Shown here one piece after another: positions 3,579 to 19,165 of a DNA stretch of 22,685 nucleotides (within the stretch, counting starts at the first letter, position 1; every line of letters starts with the position of its first letter). Under the pieces are notes generated by a model. The model worked only from the letters and a program-made list of their open reading frames with translations, did no database searches and was not told where the DNA came from. The stretch is from a virus (lineage: Duplodnaviria > Heunggongvirae > Uroviricota > Caudoviricetes): the IMG/VR virus record IMGVR_UViG_2734482779_000007; one strand, written 5' to 3'. Both the position numbers and the translations under genes were made by a program.

Positions 3579-4210
3579 CGTACAGCCTCCGCAATCCGGC
3601 CCAGCACCGTGTTATAAATCAGGCGTTCATCTGCCTGGCTGATACCCAGCAGCTCACGTACCGGGTAATCGGTGAAAATGCCCGGCGCAACCTGATCGCG
3701 CTCACCGAACTGATGAACGCGTGCAATACGTGCAGCCACGCCGCTGTAACCCACCGTCACACCGGAAGCATCCGCACGGGCTTTCAGGTAGCGGGCGGTG
3801 CGCAGTTTTACGAACATGGGGACGCGCTTTGTGCTGTCCTGGTTGATGCGCCGGGTGCGTATTTCCAGAAAACGGTCGATGTCATCCCGGTAAAACGTGC
3901 GGATATTGTTTTTATCCTCATCCCACCCGGTAATGGTTCGCCCGTATTTCCCCGTGTCGTGATGCCAGTTTTTCAGCGTGCGTGCTTCGTTATTCCAGAT
4001 AAAGCGAATGCGCTCCTGTATCCGGGTTACGCGGCGTCTGCGTGGTGTCCATGCGGTCCCGTCCGGCGCTTTCTGTGACCGGATGCGCGCCTGCTGGGCG
4101 CGGCGTAAATCCTGTGCCAGCTTTCTGGCGATGTTATTGATGGCCTGCTGATTCAGGCTGTCGCGGATAGCCTCAAAGGTTTCATCCACGCGGGTGAATG
4201 CCTTATCCAT
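3575..4210 (-). CDS. S: Tail completion / virion morphogenesis protein S-like
   Basis: ORF track 3575..4219 begins with GTG; in-frame ATG at 4210 (MDKAFTRVDETFEAIRD) overlaps the TAA of gene R. C-terminal ...VGYSGVAARIARVHQFGERDQVAPGIFTDYPVRELLGIS resembles the phage virion morphogenesis (gpS) family. Longer than P2 S. Confidence 0.75.
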   Translation of the reverse strand: MDKAFTRVDETFEAIRDSLNQQAINNIARKLAQDLRRAQQARIRSQKAPDGTAWTPRRRRVTRIQERIRFIWNNEARTLKNWHHDTGKYGRTITGWDEDKNNIRTFYRDDIDRFLEIRTRRINQDSTKRVPMFVKLRTARYLKARADASGVTVGYSGVAARIARVHQFGERDQVAPGIFTDYPVRELLGISQADERLIYNTVLGRIAEAVR

Positions 4211-9636: not shown

Positions 9637-11388
9637 ATGATTCAGGACGCTTTTGTGCGCCAGCGTGCGCGGCAACTTTACTGGCAGGGTTATCCGCCCG
9701 CAGAAATATCACGTCTGATGGGAATAAACCCGAACACGATTTATGCGTGGAAAAAACGCGACCAGTGGGATGAAACGCCACCTGTGCAGCGTGTCACGCA
9801 GTCCATCGATGCGCGCCTCATCCAGCTTACTGAAAAACAGAATAAAACAGGCGGTGACTTTAAGGAAATAGACCTGCTGACCCGGCAGCTTAAAAAGCTG
9901 CATGATGGCCAGCCGGATGTGATGGCCGCAGGAAAGAAAGGCCGGGCGAAAAAACTCAAAAATCATTTCACGCCGGAACAGATTGCCGCACTGCGGGACA
10001 AAATCATCAGCAGGCTGGAGTGGCATCAGCGGGGCTGGTTTGACTCCCTGACCCTTTGCAGGGAAGCCGGGATACGTAACAGGATGATCCTGAAATCCCG
10101 ACAGATTGGGGCGACCTGGTATTTTGCACAGGAAGCTCTGCTGATGGCGCTGCGTGACGATGTGGCGCAACCTTACCAGCGTAACCAGATTTTTTTGTCT
10201 GCGTCGCGTCGTCAGGCGTTCCAGTTTAAAAGCATTATTCAGAAGGCCGCGGCTGAAGTTGATGTGGAGCTGAAAGGGGGCGATAAAATCATCCTCTCCA
10301 ACGGCGCAGAGCTGCATTTTCTCGGCACTTCTGCTGCGTCGGCACAGTCCTATACGGGCAATTTTTATTTTGATGAATTCTTCTGGGTCAGTCGCTTTGC
10401 TGAACTGCGCAAGGTGGCTGGCGCTATGGCAACCCTCAGCGGACTGCGGCGCACCTACTTCTCCACGCCATCCACCGAAACGCACGAGGCATACGCCTAC
10501 TGGAACGGCGACCGCTGGAACGAGAAAAAGGCCACGCATAAACGCCAGCGTTTTTCTGTGGACTGGAAAACGCTGCATAACGGGCTTATCTGCCCTGACC
10601 GGACGTGGCGGCAAATTGTCACGCTGGAAGATGTGGTTAATCACGGCTGGAAACACACCGATATTGATGAAATTCGTGATGAAAACACCGAAGACGAGTT
10701 CCTCAATCTCTATATGTGTGAGTTTGTCCGCGAAGGGGAATCGGCATTTAACCTGAATATCCTGATTGGCTGTGGCGTTGACGGATACGATGACTGGAAA
10801 GACTGGAAACCTTTTGCTCCCCGCCCGATGGGGAATCGTCCGGTGTGGATTGGGTATGACGCAAACGGCAGCAGTGGCAACGGCGACAGCGGCGCTGTGT
10901 CCGTGGTGGTTCCTCCGGCTGTTCCTGGTGGCCGTTTTCGAACGGTGGAGACGCGACGCGTTCAGGGGCTGGAGTTTGAAGAACAGGCCAGAGTCATTGA
11001 AGAGTTCACGTGTCGCTACAACGTGGAACACATCGGCATTGATGTGACGGGCGGGAACGGGGAGGCTGTTTATCAGATAGTGAAACGGTTTTTCCCTGCT
11101 GCTATTCCGTACACCTTCACGCTGTCATCAAAACGGTCGCTGGTACTGAAAATGCTGCAAATAATGCGTGCCGGGCGGTGGGAATACGATCGCGCCGAAC
11201 GCGAGCTGGTCGCGGCCTTTAACGCCGTGCGTAAGGTGAAAACACCGGGCGGCTTTATCACTTACGAAACGGACCGCGCGAGGGGGATCAGCCACGGCGA
11301 CCTTGCGTGGGCAACCATGCTTGCTGTCATTAACGAACCGATTGGCGGCGAAGGAGAAAACGAGCGTTTCACGGTTATGGAGTTCTGA
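9637..11388 (+). CDS. P: Terminase large (ATPase) subunit P (P2 gpP-like)
   Basis: 583-aa ORF preceded by GGGGGAG SD; size and position (divergent from O, followed by the portal with TGATG overlap) match P2 gpP. Confidence 0.9.
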   Translation: MIQDAFVRQRARQLYWQGYPPAEISRLMGINPNTIYAWKKRDQWDETPPVQRVTQSIDARLIQLTEKQNKTGGDFKEIDLLTRQLKKLHDGQPDVMAAGKKGRAKKLKNHFTPEQIAALRDKIISRLEWHQRGWFDSLTLCREAGIRNRMILKSRQIGATWYFAQEALLMALRDDVAQPYQRNQIFLSASRRQAFQFKSIIQKAAAEVDVELKGGDKIILSNGAELHFLGTSAASAQSYTGNFYFDEFFWVSRFAELRKVAGAMATLSGLRRTYFSTPSTETHEAYAYWNGDRWNEKKATHKRQRFSVDWKTLHNGLICPDRTWRQIVTLEDVVNHGWKHTDIDEIRDENTEDEFLNLYMCEFVREGESAFNLNILIGCGVDGYDDWKDWKPFAPRPMGNRPVWIGYDANGSSGNGDSGAVSVVVPPAVPGGRFRTVETRRVQGLEFEEQARVIEEFTCRYNVEHIGIDVTGGNGEAVYQIVKRFFPAAIPYTFTLSSKRSLVLKMLQIMRAGRWEYDRAERELVAAFNAVRKVKTPGGFITYETDRARGISHGDLAWATMLAVINEPIGGEGENERFTVMEF

Positions 11389-12434
11389 TGAGCAGAAAAA
11401 ATAAAAAAGTGCGCATGAGTTCACGCATTGATCTCGCTGATGCGCTCAGGAAAGAATCATCGCTCAGTGCATTCACATTTGATGGTCCTTATCGCCTGAC
11501 CGGGCATGACCTGCTGGACAATATGTACTGTGCTGATAACGGGCGGTGGTATGAAACCCCGGTGGACTGGTACGGTCTGGCAAGAGCAGCCCGGCAAACG
11601 TCCTGGCATCAGTCTGCGCTTTACTTTAAGCGCAATGTATTACTCGGTTGCTACATCCCGCACCCGCTGCTTTCCCGGCAGGATTTCTCGGCGCTGGCGC
11701 TGGACTGGTTTGTGTTCGGTAACGCATTCCTTGAGCTTCGAAGCAATATGCTCGGCGAACCGCTTAAATTACGGCACGCCCTGGCGAAATACATGCGACG
11801 CGGAAGCGATCTTGAATCATGGTGGTATGTGCAGGATGGTAAGGACGCGTTTCAGTTTCGCCCTGGCAAAGTGTGCCACCTGATGAATCCTGACATTAAC
11901 CAGGAAATCTACGGCATGCCGGAATATCTCGGCGCATTACTCTCGGCCAGCCTGTCTCATTCGGCGGACATGTTCAGAAAACTGTATTACGACAATGGAT
12001 CCCACGCCGGGTGCATCATCTACATCGGTGCAGCGCAGGTAAACCGCGAAAGCATGGACTCCCTGAAAGAAACGTTACAGGGTGCGCGTGGTGGTGGTGC
12101 GTTTAAAAACGTGCTCATCCATGCGCCCAACGGGGGCAAAGAGGGGGTGCAAATTTTGCCGTTCCAGCAGATCACCGCAAAGGATGAGTTCATGAATGTT
12201 AAGGCGGCATCCCGTGATGATGTGCTGGCTGCGCACCGCGTTCCGCCGCAACTGATGGGGGCGATGCCGGGCGAAAAAAGTGCGTTTGGTGATGTGGAGA
12301 AGGCCGCGCGGGTTTACGCAATTAACGAGCTGATGCCTGTCATGGAGGCCATGAAGCACATCAATGACTGGCTTGGCGAAGAGGTGATCCGCTTTAACCC
12401 TTACGCACTGTTAGACACCCAGCCCACATCCTGA
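11388..12434 (+). CDS. Q: Portal protein Q (P2 gpQ-like)
   Basis: 348-aa ORF translationally coupled to P; size and position match P2 gpQ, the last gene before cos. Confidence 0.9.
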   Translation: MSRKNKKVRMSSRIDLADALRKESSLSAFTFDGPYRLTGHDLLDNMYCADNGRWYETPVDWYGLARAARQTSWHQSALYFKRNVLLGCYIPHPLLSRQDFSALALDWFVFGNAFLELRSNMLGEPLKLRHALAKYMRRGSDLESWWYVQDGKDAFQFRPGKVCHLMNPDINQEIYGMPEYLGALLSASLSHSADMFRKLYYDNGSHAGCIIYIGAAQVNRESMDSLKETLQGARGGGAFKNVLIHAPNGGKEGVQILPFQQITAKDEFMNVKAASRDDVLAAHRVPPQLMGAMPGEKSAFGDVEKAARVYAINELMPVMEAMKHINDWLGEEVIRFNPYALLDTQPTS

Positions 12435-12485: not shown

Positions 12486-12858
12486 ACTCTCCAGCTCCTG
12501 TATCAGTCAGATAATTTCACGACGCTTTCCTGCTGATTGCCATCATCGACAGTCAGACTCTTACGCAATCCCACCGCGTTGACTGCATGTTCTCGCCGTC
12601 TCAGTGCGATTTTGACGGCCTTACCTTTCACCCCATCAAATCAAAAGCCCTCACGTCTTTTTCACGCTCAGCGTGAGAAATACAGCCATTCTGTTGTATC
12701 TCTGCGACATCGTTCAGGGAATGCTATTTACCCCCTGAAACGCGGGCTGTTCCCCCGTCACTTGCGCGCAGAAAAAACGCGTTTTTTTGTGCATGCACGG
12801 ATCCCTGACGGATCCAGCCACCATGCGGGCCGGAAGGGTAAAAAGTCGTTCAAAAAAA

Positions 12859-13156: not shown

Positions 13157-13597
13157 TTAAATATTTTCGTTACGAAGCATGGCGGCGCGGCAGGCTTCAT
13201 CAACCATAGCTTCTACGTTTTCGAGAAGTACGTAACTGTACTGCTGCCCACTAACCCATTCTTTTCTGCGAGGTAATGCGCGTGGGTCAGATACAATAGC
13301 TCGCAAACGTTCCAGAACAGTTGGTACTGCTGGCGGCTCGCGATACAGCGAGATTACACGACGCGGGTCCGCATATTTATCTGGCGGACACTGAAATATC
13401 TCACCGAAACCATACTTCCTGACATCGCGCAGTTCCTCTTCATCAGTCCATGCCACCGGTTCTGCTTCCAGCGATGCCAGAGCAATCCGTGCCAGCTCTT
13501 CCGCTTCTTCTGCTGGCAGTACAACGTTGCTACCAGGTCCGTATGTTTCGCGCCACTGCTTGATTGTCAGCAGTCGCTCTTTGGTTATAGTTGTCAT
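13157..13597 (-). CDS. Hypothetical protein (146 aa)
   Basis: ORF MTTITKERLLTIKQWRETYGPGSNVVLPAEEAEELARIALASLEAEPVAWTDEEELRDV...; ATG overlaps upstream stop (ATGA). No recognisable domain. Confidence 0.5.
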   Translation of the reverse strand: MTTITKERLLTIKQWRETYGPGSNVVLPAEEAEELARIALASLEAEPVAWTDEEELRDVRKYGFGEIFQCPPDKYADPRRVISLYREPPAVPTVLERLRAIVSDPRALPRRKEWVSGQQYSYVLLENVEAMVDEACRAAMLRNENI

Positions 13598-13803
13598 TTG
13601 TTAACCCTCAAAACTTTATGCCCGGGCGCAAAAGCACGTGTTTTGTCTTTGCTTATTCGCCAGCCATCCTTACGCGCCTCTTTTGCACAACCAGCCCATG
13701 ACGTACCGATATACTCTCCGAAGTCTGGCGACTTATATTTGCCATCTGTACACTGGAGGCAATCACAATAGAGATGCATGGTGTAACTTGCAGCGATAGC
13801 CAT
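13594..13803 (-). CDS. Hypothetical small Cys-rich protein (69 aa)
   Basis: Within ORF 13594..13824 the ATG at 13803 is preceded by AAAGGAGAG and gives MAIAASYTMHLYCDCLQCTDGKYKSPDFGEYIGTSWAGCAKEARKDGW (C-x-C-x2-C...C, possible metal site). Confidence 0.45.
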   Translation of the reverse strand: MAIAASYTMHLYCDCLQCTDGKYKSPDFGEYIGTSWAGCAKEARKDGWRISKDKTRAFAPGHKVLRVNK

Positions 13804-13804
13804 A

Positions 13805-13978
13805 TCACTCTCCTTTGATACCAATGTTTACAGTCTGGCAAGCTTCTCTGAGCACCCAGTCAACAGCGTCTTTCCATGCTCCGGTTTCGGTTGGCGGATT
13901 CTCACGCTTTACCAGTTCGCCGTTCTCAGTCCATGCCAGCTTGATGTTGGTGGAGCCGTCGTCGATACAAATTTTCAT
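13805..13978 (-). pseudogene. ParM/StbA-like N-terminal fragment (57 codons), probable remnant
   Basis: Unlisted minus-strand ORF, ATG 13978 preceded by [43 protein letters not shown]... begins like plasmid R1 ParM ([21 protein letters not shown], phosphate-1 motif) but stops after 57 codons. Confidence 0.35.
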
Positions 13979-14012
13979 GTCGCTTTTCCTTATGTTGATT
14001 AATTAATCGTTT

Positions 14013-14037
14013 ACGGGATTCTGAAATCCCGTTTTTT
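14013..14037 (+). terminator. Plus-strand intrinsic-terminator-like hairpin 1 downstream of gene A
   Basis: Stem ACGGGATT (14013-14020) / AATCCCGT (14025-14032), loop CTGA, followed by T6 (14032-14037) on the plus strand. Confidence 0.5.
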
Positions 14038-14048
14038 CCTGTTTTGTG

Positions 14049-14077
14049 CGCGCTTCAAATATCGCTGCGCGTTTTTT
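14049..14077 (+). terminator. Plus-strand terminator-like hairpin 2 overlapping the A stop codon
   Basis: Stem CGCGC (14049-14053) / GCGCG (14067-14071), 13-nt loop, followed by T6 (14072-14077). Confidence 0.35.
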
Positions 14078-16877
14078 GCTCATTTACGGGATTCGTGAGT
14101 CCCGTTTCTGTCTGTTTTTTGTTTTCACTGGTCAGGCCACCCCGCAGCAGGTCTGCTTTGCGGCGGGCGCGTTCAGTGGTTTCACTGATTCTCTGTGCGT
14201 GCTCTGTGTCGCGGATGGCGCTCAGCATGTCAGAAAGCACGGTAACGGGTGTTTTCATGGTGTTCTGGTCCTGCTGAAGTGTGGATGCCAGGCGTGCGGC
14301 GGCTTCAGGGTCTGATGCCCCCAGCTGCGCCAGATAGCTGGCGACCGGGTTATGGCGGATCTCCGTGCTGCTTACGCCGTGATTACGGCTCAGGCGTTGC
14401 CAGAGCTGCGTGATTCGGCTGTCCGGGCGGGTATCCGGTTTGCGTACAATTTCAAATCCCTGCGGTGCAATGATGCTGCCGTCAATGTACAGACTGCCGC
14501 CCCGTAACAGGTGCTGCATCTGTTGTTCACCGATATGCAGGCCGAGAGATTCAGCAGACTCCCGCCATTCTTTAGCGAGTAATTCGTGGTTATCAGGCAA
14601 AGGCCGCTGCTGTTTGCGGCTCTGTGTCCAGCTCTGCATTTCATCACTGCTGTTTTTTGCCTGTTTGTCACGAAGCGAACGCATCAGCGCCCGGCGTTCG
14701 TGCCGTTTCAGTGAGCGCATCCATTCGTTCACTTCAACGCCGTCAGGGAGCTGCGGCCACGGTGCTGGCCGTTCTTCCGGCTGTTCTGTCCCGTTGTTGT
14801 CCGTTTCCTGTACACGGGGACAGTTATTGCCACGAGTCCAAGGGGCGGCAGGGCCGCCCTGAAGGTCAAAACCATTTTCGCGGGTGCTGTCTTCCGCTTC
14901 CGGTTTACGTCTTACCAGCTTCCAGTTATCCGGATGCGTGCACACACGGGAGGATTCCCCGATGAGTGGTGACCAGATCCCGTAAATCTGTACGCTCTGT
15001 TCACCGTAATCGTTCAGCTCATCTGCGAGGTCGTAGGCGGTGCGAATCAGGTAGTCTTTGCGTGGAACAAGTACGCCGCCCTGTTTCTCTATGTAGGTGG
15101 CAAAACATCCGGCATCAGCGGCAGCGAGTACCGCATCCATTGCGTCATCCTTCAGCTGTTGCGGGCCTTCCGGGTTGCGTGCCATCTGGCTGGCAAGGCG
15201 ACGCAGTTCACGCCACACCTGACGGGAGGGGATACCAAAGAACTGGAACTGGCGGACACGGTGAAGGCGCGCCCAGCCGATGGCGCGTTCCACGCTCTCG
15301 GCCATTGACTTTCCGGTTTCGTGGTCAACGCGTGGCTTGCCCGTTTTCGGGTCGGTGCCATCCACGGCGCGGCTGTCCAGGTTCTTTCCGATGTAGGTGG
15401 CGATGTAGCTGGTTGGCGTGCCTTTTGAGCCGTCTACGTACTCCGCCTTAAAACGCGGAGTAATATCATTGCCCAGCTCGTGGCGGTCTTCCTGAATGGC
15501 AATATCACGGGTGTGGGACACAATGGTGTCGATTTCTTCCGGATGAGCAAAGACCATCATATGCCAGTGCACGGTGCCGTCATGGTGAGGCTCCACCGTG
15601 CGGATGCCATACCAGCGCAGGCCGTCGCGGTTCAATTTCTTGCGGACCGCTGCAAAAAACGTGTTAACCAGGTAATCGCTGGAGTCGCGCATGGTGGCCC
15701 CGTTCCATTTGGGATTCGGATGACCGTTCTCTGTTGTGGCGTGGTATTTTGACGGGCAGGTGACAGTCAGAAACACCGCTTTGTCGCCACGGGCTTCGGC
15801 CAGAAGTTCCAGCCCCTTCATGGTGGCCATCATTTCTGCCTTACGGTGAACCGGGTTACTTACTCCCGCGTAATACACTGTCTCGAGATCAATCGTGAAC
15901 CCGTCTTCGTTTTCCAGCATGAAACTTTTCAGGAAGTCGCGTGTTTTCTCGCGCTGTGCGCGAAATTCACTTAATGCATCCTGACTCAGATAGGGGGATG
16001 TTTTTCTGGAAACCAGACAGGCAGCGCGGAGTTGTTCCTCTCTCCATTCGCAACGTAAAAGCCACAATTTGCGTTTCCACCAGTCCGCACAGGTCAGGCG
16101 AAGGATTGCACCCGGCAGCAGTTCTGTGTCCGGTTCGTTCCTCCGGTCTTTGTCTGTTGTCAGTGCGTCATAATGCGGAGGCACTGTGTGCAGATGTAAC
16201 GCCATGCGAGCCAGCAGCTGATACGCCTTCAGCGTTATATCCATGGTCAGCTCGCCATCGGTCGCGCCAAAGCCATCGCAGAGTTTTTCGAAGGTGCTGC
16301 TGAACATTGCCGCCGTCATGACGGCCAGTGTCTGTATCTGGTGTTTGTTGAGCTGCGGCAGGTAAAGTAAATCGTCCAGACGTTCACGTCCGGCAAGGGA
16401 GCGATAACCCGGAGTCAGCCAGCGTCCGTCAGTGCGGGCCAGACGTTCCAATATTTTGCGCAGGGTTCCGCGTGCATAGCGTTCCGCCTGCCAGCTCTTT
16501 TTGCCTTTCCGGCGATCGGCTTCCTGTTTTTTGCGCAGGAAGGAGAGGTGGCGAATAAGCGGATCGCGCAGATAGGACGGCAGCAGGCGCAGCGAGGCCA
16601 TGGCTTCATCCACCGCACCGCGTGCCTGTTTTCTGGCTTCTCTGGCCAGTGTGATGGTTTTGTCCTGCTTTTCCTGTGCGTCCAGGCTTTTATTAATCAG
16701 GTTGCCCAGCGGTGTGGCGGAGAACGCCGCGTCAGCCATTTCCTGGCGGCGCTCGTTCTCTGCCCGGTAGGCATCCAGCCAGGAGGAAAGTGCGGATTCA
16801 GGTGCGGGGATCCCCGTTCCTTCACGTCCTACTGCGTGGCGCGGTTGTTGCCAGTCCCTGATGTACTCTGCCGTCAT
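14055..16877 (-). CDS. A: Replication initiation endonuclease A (rolling-circle HUH initiator, P2 gpA family)
   Basis: 940-aa ORF, the largest in the early operon. Contains ...GIRTVEPHHDGTVHWHMMVF... (HUH-type metal site) and ...TSYIATYIGKN... (catalytic Tyr region) as in P2 gpA, but is longer than P2 A (~761 aa). Confidence 0.85.
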   Translation of the reverse strand: MTAEYIRDWQQPRHAVGREGTGIPAPESALSSWLDAYRAENERRQEMADAAFSATPLGNLINKSLDAQEKQDKTITLAREARKQARGAVDEAMASLRLLPSYLRDPLIRHLSFLRKKQEADRRKGKKSWQAERYARGTLRKILERLARTDGRWLTPGYRSLAGRERLDDLLYLPQLNKHQIQTLAVMTAAMFSSTFEKLCDGFGATDGELTMDITLKAYQLLARMALHLHTVPPHYDALTTDKDRRNEPDTELLPGAILRLTCADWWKRKLWLLRCEWREEQLRAACLVSRKTSPYLSQDALSEFRAQREKTRDFLKSFMLENEDGFTIDLETVYYAGVSNPVHRKAEMMATMKGLELLAEARGDKAVFLTVTCPSKYHATTENGHPNPKWNGATMRDSSDYLVNTFFAAVRKKLNRDGLRWYGIRTVEPHHDGTVHWHMMVFAHPEEIDTIVSHTRDIAIQEDRHELGNDITPRFKAEYVDGSKGTPTSYIATYIGKNLDSRAVDGTDPKTGKPRVDHETGKSMAESVERAIGWARLHRVRQFQFFGIPSRQVWRELRRLASQMARNPEGPQQLKDDAMDAVLAAADAGCFATYIEKQGGVLVPRKDYLIRTAYDLADELNDYGEQSVQIYGIWSPLIGESSRVCTHPDNWKLVRRKPEAEDSTRENGFDLQGGPAAPWTRGNNCPRVQETDNNGTEQPEERPAPWPQLPDGVEVNEWMRSLKRHERRALMRSLRDKQAKNSSDEMQSWTQSRKQQRPLPDNHELLAKEWRESAESLGLHIGEQQMQHLLRGGSLYIDGSIIAPQGFEIVRKPDTRPDSRITQLWQRLSRNHGVSSTEIRHNPVASYLAQLGASDPEAAARLASTLQQDQNTMKTPVTVLSDMLSAIRDTEHAQRISETTERARRKADLLRGGLTSENKKQTETGLTNPVNEQKTRSDI
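14086..14120 (+). terminator. Plus-strand terminator-like hairpin 3 inside the 3' end of gene A
   Basis: Stem ACGGGA (14086-14091) / TCCCGT (14100-14105) followed by a T-rich tract ending in T6 (14115-14120). TTTACGGGATTC is a direct repeat of hairpin 1 (14010-14021 vs 14083-14094). Confidence 0.4.
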
Positions 16878-16883
16878 AGTGAT

Positions 16884-17249
16884 TTACTTCGTCATGCCAT
16901 TCAGGGTGTCGCGGCAGACTGTAGCCAGCCGCTGAATTTCCAGCACGGTGTCTTCTGTGTCGGCATGGCGATGTGTGATGCGGATGCTGTCGGCAATCAC
17001 ATCGACGATTGCAGAGGATGGGCGCTGGTAAATGCCAATAACGGACGGGGTGCCACCTTCAATGCGGTAAAGCCTGTAATTTCCCTCGTTGCTGTCAATC
17101 ATGTAGCGACCATCAATAACAATCTTTCCGTCAGCGAGCTGCGGTACAGGCAGGGATTTCAGGTACATGTCATAACGTTCACGCACGCGAACGGCAAGAT
17201 CACGCTCTGTGTTGAGCAGGTATTCAAGAAAGTCGTTGGCGAGAATCAT
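16884..17249 (-). CDS. Hypothetical early protein (121 aa)
   Basis: ORF MILANDFLEYLLNTERDLAVRVRERYDMYLKSL..., AGAGGA SD, 6 bp upstream of A. No recognisable domain. Confidence 0.5.
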   Translation of the reverse strand: MILANDFLEYLLNTERDLAVRVRERYDMYLKSLPVPQLADGKIVIDGRYMIDSNEGNYRLYRIEGGTPSVIGIYQRPSSAIVDVIADSIRITHRHADTEDTVLEIQRLATVCRDTLNGMTK

Positions 17250-17321
17250 TGCGGCAATCCTCTGGTTACAGATGTGCGAAGGCCTCCCGCCGCAAGGTGC
17301 AGGAAAGGCCCGGAACAGGAA

Positions 17322-17552
17322 TTAATGGAGTTTGTTTTGCTGCTGGATGAGCTGCTGAAGCTCGCGCAGATCATCCGCCAGATAACTGAAAACAGCGGAT
17401 GAGTAGAGGTTTGAAAGTTCGCAGCTACGCTCATGCAGCATATTGATGTGCATGATTTTAGCGACGCGGAATGCGCGGGAAAGTCTGCGGTTGATTTCAG
17501 TCTGGATGTGACGACGCTCCGCGATAGCGCGGTGCTGTTTGCGGTTTGCCAT
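17322..17552 (-). CDS. Hypothetical small basic protein (76 aa)
   Basis: ORF MANRKQHRAIAERRHIQTEINRRLSRAFRVAKIMHINMLHERSCELSNLY... (Arg-rich N-terminus, possibly nucleic-acid binding). AAGAGG SD lies within a repeated 9-mer. Confidence 0.45.
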   Translation of the reverse strand: MANRKQHRAIAERRHIQTEINRRLSRAFRVAKIMHINMLHERSCELSNLYSSAVFSYLADDLRELQQLIQQQNKLH

Positions 17553-17730
17553 GATATGTGGCCTCTTGTAGTAAGTTGTGAAAACTCACCATCCAGAGCT
17601 GCGAAACTGTGGGTGGCGAGACGTACGAGGTTCGCAGTACCGGCTACAAGAGATCCCGGCCCGACCGAAGTCGGCCCCGTACGCCCCGCCATAATTCTGA
17701 CGCGAAAAAAACGTGGCAATACAGTACGCA

Positions 17731-17752
17731 CAAAAAAACCGCTGGCGCGGTT
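17731..17752 (-). terminator. Intrinsic terminator (minus strand) downstream of the SPFH cassette
   Basis: Stem ACCGC (17738-17742) / GCGGT (17747-17751), loop TGGC, followed on the minus strand by U7 (plus-strand A-run 17732-17738). A second U7 lies at 17705-17711. Confidence 0.5.
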
Positions 17753-17888
17753 GTGCGCTCTTGTAGTCAGCAGGCTGCGAAACCCGGCACCCGTTTTATG
17801 AGGTGCATCGAAAATGTAACCTGACTGATTGCGGCATGGCAAGCGGTTTTTTTGTGAGAACGGCATACTAAAAAATCCTGATACTGCT

Positions 17889-17913
17889 CCGGCCAGCGGT
17901 TTGCACTGGCCGG
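17889..17913 (-). other. GC-rich hairpin immediately 3' of the SPFH gene
   Basis: Stem CCGGCCAG (17889-17896) / CTGGCCGG (17906-17913), 9-nt loop, starting 7 nt after the TAA stop. No adjacent U-run. Confidence 0.35.
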
Positions 17914-17919
17914 GTGTCA

Positions 17920-18750
17920 TTACTTCACGGGAACGAACGGAACAGCGGTGTTACTGGTCATGTATTGCGGCAGCGTGCCGTTCCATTTGTTGATCGCTTC
18001 CAGCTCCATAACGCCGGGATTCTGGCGCAGAGCTTCGCCGCGTAAACGAATGGCGTCGGCTTCAGCCTGGGCTTTTGTGCGAATGGCATCAGCCTGTCCG
18101 GCAGCTTCTGCGCGCAACATGTTGGCTTCTGCTTCGCGCTGTTTTACTTCCTGTTCGCGTTGCAGGGTTTTCTGGTTTGCCGTGACTTTGGCGTTAATGC
18201 TGTCGATAACGGTTGGCGGATATTCCGGTTTACCGACATAAGAGAGGCTCATTACCTGAATGCCGATGGGTGTCATTTCTGCCTGAATATCTTTAAGTGC
18301 TGAATCCAGCAGTTCAGACTTGCCACCGTCGATGAATTTATCGGTGGTCATTTTGCTGGCCAGTCGGTTGAGTGCGTCGGCGATCTTCTGGCGCAGGTCA
18401 GTGTCGGTAATGTCGTCCACGCCTTTGCGGTAGGTCTGAAACACCGTGGTAACTTTGGATGGATCAACTTTGTAGGCCACGCCGATGTGATAGCCGATGG
18501 TTGTGCCGTCACTCATCTGGAAGTTGAACGGCTCATCGTAAGTCTTCATTTGTTTGAAAGTCGGGAAGATGTAAACCTCTGTATTCCAGCCTGTCCAGTA
18601 GCGGCCAACGCCAACTACTTCGCCGACGCCTTTGTCGTCGCCCAGTTTGTTGACTTTGATTCCCACATTACCTGGCTCAACGCGATCGCAACCAACCAGC
18701 AGGATGGCGGCAAAAAGCGGGAGAATCTGAAAGAGTTTGAATTTCTTCAT
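17920..18750 (-). CDS. SPFH/Band-7 (prohibitin/HflC-like) domain lipoprotein
   Basis: 276-aa ORF. N-terminus MKKFKLFQILPLFAAILLVGC is a lipoprotein signal with lipobox LVGC. Core ...VEPGNVGIKVNKLGDDKGVGEVVGVGRYWTGWNTEVYIFPTFKQ... fits the SPFH fold. C-terminus is an A/E/Q/R-rich predicted coiled coil (QREAEANMLRAEAAGQADAIRTKAQAEADAIRLRGEA) as in HflK/HflC/QmcA. ATG overlaps upstream stop (ATGA). Confidence 0.8.
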   Translation of the reverse strand: MKKFKLFQILPLFAAILLVGCDRVEPGNVGIKVNKLGDDKGVGEVVGVGRYWTGWNTEVYIFPTFKQMKTYDEPFNFQMSDGTTIGYHIGVAYKVDPSKVTTVFQTYRKGVDDITDTDLRQKIADALNRLASKMTTDKFIDGGKSELLDSALKDIQAEMTPIGIQVMSLSYVGKPEYPPTVIDSINAKVTANQKTLQREQEVKQREAEANMLRAEAAGQADAIRTKAQAEADAIRLRGEALRQNPGVMELEAINKWNGTLPQYMTSNTAVPFVPVK

Positions 18751-18950
18751 TGCTTGATTTCCTTGATGTACTTACTGAAAAGGCGAACAACGCCTGCCGG
18801 GTACAGCATGGCAATGAAAATGCCCAGCAATACCAGGAAGGAGCTGTCTGATGAAATCATTCGGGGGAGTAGTCCTGCATACAGAATGAAAGAGACGAGG
18901 ACGCATACCAGCGCCCACATGTATGCGCGAAACCAGGTCTTTTTGTTCAT
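18747..18950 (-). CDS. Small two-TM membrane protein (67 aa), partner of the SPFH lipoprotein
   Basis: ORF MNKKTWFRAYMWALVCVLVSFILYAGLLPRMISSDSSFLVLLGIFIAMLYPAGVVRLF... with two hydrophobic helices; ATGA coupling on both sides. Confidence 0.6.
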   Translation of the reverse strand: MNKKTWFRAYMWALVCVLVSFILYAGLLPRMISSDSSFLVLLGIFIAMLYPAGVVRLFSKYIKEIKQ

Positions 18951-19165
18951 GTTGATTGCTCTCTTTTGTTATTCAGGAAAAAGTCAAAAACGTTATCGAT
19001 GCGCATCATGAGTTCGCGCTGCATCGCTTCTGGTGTTTCCGGTTCACCAGGCGACCCCAGCGTTGCGCAGAAATCAGCGATCTCGTGTTGAATGAGTTCT
19101 TTCAGCGTCGGTAAGGAATTCATGTGTGTGCGGCGATGCCTGCGTGTGATTCGCCTTCTGCTCAT
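18947..19165 (-). CDS. Hypothetical small protein (72 aa), SPFH cassette gene 2
   Basis: ORF MSRRRITRRHRRTHMNSLPTLKELIQHEIADFCATLGSPGEPETPEAMQ...; basic N-terminus; ATGA coupling on both sides. Confidence 0.45.
   Translation of the reverse strand: MSRRRITRRHRRTHMNSLPTLKELIQHEIADFCATLGSPGEPETPEAMQRELMMRIDNVFDFFLNNKREQST

Follow-up and report, generated by a model that had tools for sequence, protein, structure and literature searches.

What does an open reading frame of 57 codons that begins like the partition protein ParM represent in a P2-type prophage of Escherichia coli: the remnant of a lost gene, a small protein in its own right, or an error of assembly? We address this question for the frame called here ORF57, in the whole 22,685-nt stretch of DNA recorded in IMG/VR as IMGVR_UViG_2734482779_000007, which we call the window. 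A first-pass annotation made from the letters alone had reported the 57-codon frame with its strand unstated; the frame is confirmed, and lies on the minus strand. ORF57 is, with high probability, the deletion scar of a prophage parM gene, formed by a microhomology-mediated, in-frame fusion across 1.8 kb.

Genomic setting

Across 81% of the window, identity to Escherichia phage P88 (Xuanwuvirus, Peduoviridae) is ∼95%, which makes the window a P88-like, P2-type E. coli prophage. Its features are collected in Table 1. ORF57 lies in a variable region, 76 nt downstream of the replication endonuclease gene (rep), which forms the conserved left flank; the conserved right flank is the portal gene, ∼1.4 kb beyond ORF57 and on the opposite strand. 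The 146-aa gene is part of a lambdoid-type module downstream of ORF57, and its DNA matches lambdoid, Stx and RCS47 phages.

Rousset et al. (2022, PMC9122126) describe the gpA-gpQ interval as a variable cargo hotspot of P2-like phages, about one-quarter of which are reported to have a putative partition system there. Pseudogene remnants are given as common at such loci, and module exchange at gene boundaries as typical, in a second study (NAR 2026, PMC13586616). ORF57 resembles these cases in sitting between the replication and portal genes and differs in being individually reconstructed, with both parents, the exact joint and the microhomology in hand; term searches of the two papers found no individual description of it.

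Table 1. Features of the ORF57 locus (window coordinates) and parM-disrupting alleles (parM nucleotides, with coordinates in the sequence named); L and P numbers are our handles for loci and proteins
Feature	Position	Strand	Remarks
Replication endonuclease gene, gpA family, 940 aa	14055..16877	minus	Pfam Phage_GPA, E=1.6e-129
Two 42-nt direct repeats, 73 nt apart	14007-14048, 14080-14121 (14007..14121)		One in the spacer between rep and parM, the other inside rep at its 3′ end
parM upstream spacer, retained	13979..14054	minus	Ribosome-binding site AAGGAAAAGCGAC before the ATG; one 20-nt palindrome; identical in intact relatives
Chimeric 57-codon ORF (ORF57)	13805..13978	minus	ATG to TGA; in-frame fusion, very probably left by an 1809-bp deletion
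parM remnant, codons 1-21 and one base	13915..13978	minus	Colinear with nt 1-64 of P88 and E2855 parM
Deletion joint	13915..13918		GAAC as read on the minus strand, a 4-nt microhomology shared by the two parental sites
3′ end (codons 69-104 and stop) of the 104-aa phage gene, P88 gp20 family	13805..13914	minus	
22-nt boundary sequence	13805..13826		Site of the 163-aa XF1762-family insertion in most other carriers of the fusion
69-aa gene, phrog_926, no assigned function	13594..13803	minus	Annotated homologues exist
146-aa gene, no assigned function	13157..13597	minus	phrog_60 and phrog_660 (PHROGs)
Portal gene, gpQ homologue	11388..12434	plus	PF04860
Allele of the window (P0001)	parM nt 60-64 (window 13915-13919)		Joined to codon 69 of the 104-aa gene, in frame; 1809 bp lost
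Allele of L015 (P0026)	parM nt 64 (L015 5061-5064)		Joined to unrelated sequence; nearly all DNA as far as the portal gene gone
Allele of L016 (P0025)	parM nt 60 (L016 ∼5060)		Joined to the 3′ end of parR; ∼1.2 kb deletion
Allele of L018 (P0022)	parM nt 61-64 (L018 ∼4061-4064)		23-nt slippage deletion between GAAC-type repeats
Allele of L044 and L073	parM ∼nt 366		Short novel tail, then XF1762; in frame to the common stop codon
Allele of L017 (P0007)	parM ∼nt 375		Joined to codon 38 of the 104-aa gene, in frame

Composition of ORF57

Two unrelated parts are joined in ORF57. Its residues 1-28 match profile positions 1-28 of the Pfam ParM N-terminal family StbA_N (PF06406; E=3.1e-8), and the 34.2 bits of this alignment lie above the curated cut-off of 24.6. 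Residues 1-21 match a PHROGs family of partition proteins (phrog_691), and residues 2-20 align to the solved structure of R1 ParM, a type II partition actin-like ATPase (PDB 1MWM/1MWK; PF06406 and PF21523), with one 10-residue stretch identical, so the start of R1 ParM is indeed reproduced as first described. Both the phosphate-1 loop DxGxxxxK and the N-terminal beta-hairpin that mark the ParM family are present; the remnant spans beta1, the phosphate-1 loop and beta2 of the actin fold. The first-pass annotation had spoken of an N-terminus that 'mimics' ParM/StbA. The resemblance is real, and neither mimicry nor chance explains it; the cause is descent, since at the DNA level window 13915-14200 shares 98% identity with the start of P88 parM together with its upstream spacer and the 3′ end of the replication gene.

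The ParM portion comprises residues 1-21 only, and the remaining residues belong to an unrelated phage family. For residues 21-57 the match is to phrog_26213 (E=2.8e-20, at positions 53-89 of an 89-position profile) and also to phrog_660 and phrog_250, the three being PHROGs families with no assigned function, and residues 68-104 of P88 gp20 match the window by tblastn (E=1.7e-19). The 36 C-terminal residues of ORF57 are the conserved tail of the P88 gp20-like family (phrog_26213/phrog_660), a C-terminal module that ends in GIKG(D/E) and has 26 invariant columns in the family alignment. What sets ORF57 apart from this family is the other end: the N-terminal two-thirds, including the AVRFY segment before the tail, is absent and ParM residues 1-21 stand in its place. 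Across phages the tail is joined to many different N-termini, in proteins of 56 to 155 aa. By its occurrence in these sequences the 36-residue tail (phrog_26213/660/250) is a mosaic C-terminal module. Tail and 69-aa gene together (window 13455-13918) are contiguous at 92-93% identity in the lambdoid-type locus L003 (3896-4359) and in L004 (3898-4358), a P2-like prophage without ParMR. The closing of the frame after 57 codons, noted earlier, thus stands as to length; it involves no nonsense codon or frameshift, since the frame runs into the natural 3′ end of another gene (21 + 36 codons).

Twenty-one residues forming beta1, the phosphate-1 loop and beta2 supply one of the five motifs of the actin fold and cannot bind ATP or polymerise; ATP-dependent polymerisation by the ParM fragment is not expected. 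ORF57 covers 28 of the 158 positions of the StbA_N (N-domain) profile and none of the ParM C-domain (PF21523). Compared with R1 ParM it keeps 21 of ∼320 residues and is without the nucleotide-binding cleft, the filament interfaces and the ParR partner. A complete fold of ∼320 residues, with both domains and the phosphate-2, adenosine and connect motifs, is not contained in 57 aa. Because both the full fold and the ParR partner are missing, ORF57 is a remnant of the ParM family and not a functional member. An AlphaFold model of the chimera is of low confidence (pLDDT 52.6, pTM 0.27) and uninformative, since that pLDDT was obtained on a shallow alignment of 7 rows. NCBI names the protein 'ParM domain-containing protein', which overstates it, and one modest use of the present finding lies in annotation.

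Intact relatives and the deletion joint

In P88 the replication gene is followed by parM (319 aa), a ParR/StbB-type gene (103 aa), a ClpX-type zinc-finger gene (110 aa) and gp20 (∼104-112 aa). The order in the E2855 prophage is rep, parM (319 aa), parR (103 aa), the zinc-finger gene (110 aa), the 104-aa gene, an XF1762-family gene (163 aa), the 69-aa gene, a 240-aa gene and, further on, the portal gene; the CREC-591 prophage has this order minus the XF1762-family gene. P88 ParM matches StbA_N (1.8e-82) and the ParM C-terminal domain (1.3e-68) and aligns with R1 ParM over its full length (PDB 1mwk, E=9e-93), and its 103-aa neighbour, gp18, matches Plasmid_stab_B (1.6e-24). Judged by such profiles, the genes lost from the window are a genuine ParMR pair. 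The window shares with these P88-like ParM/ParR loci (gp17/gp18 in P88, and those of E2855 and CREC-591) the position after rep, the spacer, the ribosome-binding site and the first 64 nt of parM, at 98% DNA identity, and differs in lacking 1809 bp. With an intact 319-aa parM at exactly this syntenic position in all three, the suggestion in the first-pass annotation that the frame is the scar of a plasmid-partition-like cargo gene is well supported.

The joint can be placed to within a few nucleotides. When the window is compared with P88 by BLAST, two colinear segments meet inside ORF57 and overlap by 4 nt. The counterpart of window 13915-19075 starts at nt 64 of P88 parM and extends back over rep into the genes that precede it; that of window 13809-13918 is the 3′ part of gp20. 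Against the E2855 prophage (L013), window 13915-16574 is colinear with L013 7656-10300, and window 13805-13918 matches L013 5737-5850, the tail of the 104-aa gene, at 99.1% identity. Exactly 1809 bp, L013 5851-7659, are absent from the window, with a 4-nt ambiguity from the microhomology, and the P88 geometry agrees. The missing DNA takes in parM from codon 22 to codon 319, parR and the zinc-finger gene in full, and the first 68 codons of the 104-aa gene. With the joint marked by a slash, the parental sequences read ...AACGGCGAAC/GCCGC in parM and ...TTCTATGAAC/TGGTAAAG in the 104-aa gene; in the coding-strand alignment parM has ...GAGAACGGCGAAC/GCCGCAAC..., gp20 ...TTCTATGAAC/TGGTAAAGCG... 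and the window ...GAGAACGGCGAAC/TGGTAAAGCG... The product is ParM residues 1-21 followed in frame by residues 69-104 of the gp20 family, the Glu at the joint being common to both parents.

Intact orthologues of both parental genes are syntenic and colinear on either side of this one joint in E2855, CREC-591 and P88. An undeleted query assembled in silico, from window 13560-13918 and the P88 sequence expected to precede it, is held at a coverage of at least 80% by eight complete E. coli genomes, with and without the XF1762-family gene. In tblastn searches of the whole window in all frames with the ParM, ParR-like, zinc-finger and gp20-22 proteins of P88 there was no further remnant of ParM, the ParR-like protein or the zinc-finger protein, and the gp18 query for the ParR adaptor gave no significant match (best E=0.26). 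Full-length ParM likewise found no frameshifted continuation, as predicted for a scar. The short form must derive from the long forms because its N-terminus is homologous to R1 ParM and its tail to the C-terminus of an independent family; as read from these alignments, the direction of change, long to short, is unambiguous.

Under the deletion explanation, the ancestor would have been a P88-like prophage with rep (gpA), parM, parR, the ClpX-type zinc-finger gene, the 104-aa gene, downstream cargo and the portal gene, a layout that persists in E2855 and CREC-591. One illegitimate recombination across GAAC would have removed the 1809 bp, leaving a joint that is in frame by chance and an ORF57 that ends at the natural stop of the 104-aa gene; the type II partition module is lost. 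An in-frame outcome is expected one time in three by chance and is therefore by itself no evidence of selection. After a single origin the allele would have spread into diverged P88-like backgrounds by homologous recombination, and the XF1762-family gene beside the scar would be absent in the window's sub-lineage. Nothing among the results obtained contradicts a deletion origin. What the scar shows is the usual decay of prophage genes, at a locus whose variability is documented; it is a cleanly reconstructed example of cargo loss at the gpA-gpQ hotspot and matters little in itself.

Distribution and history of the fusion

The exact 57-aa protein occurs on 26 contigs whose sources name E. coli, and its cluster at 90% identity has one member. 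Among 5.8 billion proteins searched, the full 57 aa are covered by the query alone, other matches covering at most 72%. A conserved family of ∼57-aa proteins with this sequence, unrelated to actin-like ATPases, had also been considered; with a one-member cluster and no other match spanning both halves, it is out. None of 5426 complete E. coli genomes covers at least 80% of a 561-nt query that spans the joint, and an exact 23-nt pattern across the joint had no match in IMG/VR or among the GTDB representatives.

Between window positions 14200 and 13805, eight independent loci that were retrieved match at 100% identity. They share with it an identical block of ∼2 kb, reaching ∼0.9-1.5 kb upstream of the start codon and ∼1 kb downstream, with flanks 95-96% identical. 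Beyond the block the carrier prophages differ by 4-5%, their replication proteins range from 935 to 941 aa, and their early genes differ. Compared with L005-L012, mismatch clusters start abruptly at window 14885-15511 and 12696-12777, a sign of recombination tracts and of mosaicism in rep (935-941 aa). The sequences agree with one origin and later homologous exchange between P88-like phages.

In most carriers ORF57 is directly followed by a 163-aa XF1762-family gene (L005-L010, 6175-6668), which is absent in the window and in L011; the protein matches NCBIfam NF045478 (1e-60), with a weak match to Pfam Mom. This insertion is bounded by a sequence of ∼20-22 nt shared with the end of ORF57 and containing Shine-Dalgarno sequence, stop and start (ATCAAAGGAGAGTGAnATG). 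From its position and content, ATCAAAGGAGAGTGAnATG looks like a module-boundary sequence used in cargo exchange.

Alternative explanations

Two other origins for the joint were weighed. A sequencing or assembly artefact, a chimeric contig or collapsed repeat, has nothing specific in its favour, the joint sharing only 4 nt; the identical junction recurs on the 26 contigs, from independent NCBI and Logan read-set assemblies and on contigs of up to 394 kb, and we give an artefact practically no credence. The tail could also have arrived from outside, by illegitimate recombination of a P88-like prophage with a co-resident lambdoid prophage bearing the tail, the 69-aa gene and a DUF551-type module. 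In lambdoid and other prophages window 13455-13918 has an unbroken counterpart of 92-93% identity, window 13455-13816 is 95.6% identical to phage RCS47, and in the gpA-gpQ hotspot modules are typically exchanged where genes meet (PMC13586616). However, such an exchange would need a second crossover to regain the P88-like portal flank, and the closest match to the tail (99.1%) is a P88-like prophage with intact ParMR, so that a single deletion suffices; we regard the exchange as very unlikely.

The remaining alternative concerns function. The chimera might be a neo-functionalised small protein in which the tail or the ParM strand-loop is useful, for example by interfering with competing ParM filaments. 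The in-frame fusion with its good ribosome-binding site would suit such a role, as would the persistence of the allele in several diverged prophage backgrounds, the conservation of the tail on many N-termini (among them a natural 56-aa protein, P0003) and two other independent parM deletions (P0007 and the L044/L073 type) that run in frame to the identical stop. Yet there is one invariant allele, with no sequence diversity from which selection could be read; the AVRFY segment, which precedes the tail in every natural family member, is missing; the AlphaFold scores given above are low, though from a shallow alignment; only one of five actin-fold motifs is present; and the allele is rare, none of 5426 complete genomes having it while 1279 have intact parM. 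We consider a new function highly improbable, and the idea in the first-pass annotation of a small protein that retains only the strand-loop as a functional unit found no support in the single invariant allele, the lack of a family or the low-confidence model. Deletion, as reconstructed above, remains our explanation of ORF57.

Recurrent breakpoints in parM

Other broken parM alleles came from a protein search, and five were checked at the DNA level (Table 1). Four independent parM-disrupting alleles have a left breakpoint within the same 5 nt, after GGCGAAC (parM nt 60-64). The search detects only alleles keeping at least ∼20 N-terminal residues and favours short proteins, and the shared breakpoint may be a deletion hotspot or a search bias. 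DNA secondary structure at the recurrent breakpoint is nothing unusual (z=0.27). Pattern scans of IMG/VR and the JGI metagenomes gave no further junction at parM nt 64; the hits of the IMG/VR scan were two G-to-A SNPs and an unrelated phage contig of high GC content, L021 (979-1001; IMGVR_UViG_3300043331_002276), in which 22 nt match parM nt 42-63 exactly (AWTENGE) inside an unrelated ORF, probably by chance. Two further alleles have their break at parM nt ∼366-375, beside an A-run.

In three independent deletions (P0001, P0007 and the L044/L073 type) reading still ends, in frame, at one common stop codon, and this codon overlaps the start of the next gene. The kept frame hints at selection for coupling, as the common breakpoint hints at a hotspot. 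A break- or slippage-prone site inside parM, perhaps tied to the palindromic parC-like repeats described below, together with selection for deletions that preserve downstream coupling, could account for these patterns, and we think this combination rather unlikely.

Translation of the chimera

ORF57 retains the parM start codon and ribosome-binding site (AAGGA, 8-12 nt before the ATG), and because of this ribosomes probably still translate the chimera, as the first cistron behind rep. A promoter scan found no sigma-70-like promoter on the minus strand of window 13400-14400, which leaves the rep operon, or a promoter that the scan did not recognise, as the presumed source of transcription. The Shine-Dalgarno sequence of the 69-aa gene lies inside the last codons of ORF57 (GGAGAGTGAtATG), and since its ATG follows 1 nt after the ORF57 stop (GGAGAGTGATATG) the 69-aa gene can be translationally coupled to the chimera. 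The likely sole role of ORF57 would be passive: ribosomes delivered to the stop/start overlap GGAGAGTGAtATG would sustain translation of the 69-aa and 146-aa genes and spare them polarity.

The lost partition module

The module missing from the window is common in the species. Intact phage-type parM, counted at an identity of at least 95%, is carried by 1279 of the 5426 complete E. coli genomes; its chromosomal places number 1441, those on plasmids two. In all four intact loci inspected (P88, L001 3393-5064; E2855; CREC-591; L018) a ParR-like gene follows parM; next comes a ClpX-type zinc-finger gene in three of the four and a DUF7446 gene in L018. The literature searched contained no experimental test of the role of a prophage-borne ParMR, and the P88 phage paper makes no mention of ParM or partition. 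A precedent for a ParM-type system in an integrated prophage is AlpC, the experimentally studied actin-like protein encoded by the Corynebacterium prophage CGP3 (PMC4446434); it differs in coming from another lineage and in being an intact, functional protein, and bears on the role of the lost module, not on the scar. In studies of that role the scar allele could be of modest use as a natural ParMR-minus, near-isogenic control.

The DNA upstream of the start codon may hold a further trace of the module. Each of the two 42-nt direct repeats contains a 20-nt palindrome, ACGGGAT-N6-(A/G)TCCCGT (14013-14032 and 14086-14105). The repeats are present upstream of the start codon in loci bearing parM or a parM stub and are absent from the parM-less P2-like prophage L004. 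From this arrangement we infer a candidate orphan parC-like centromere or operator, a putative ParR-binding site of the lost ParMR. On the plus strand the same repeats score as terminator-like hairpins.
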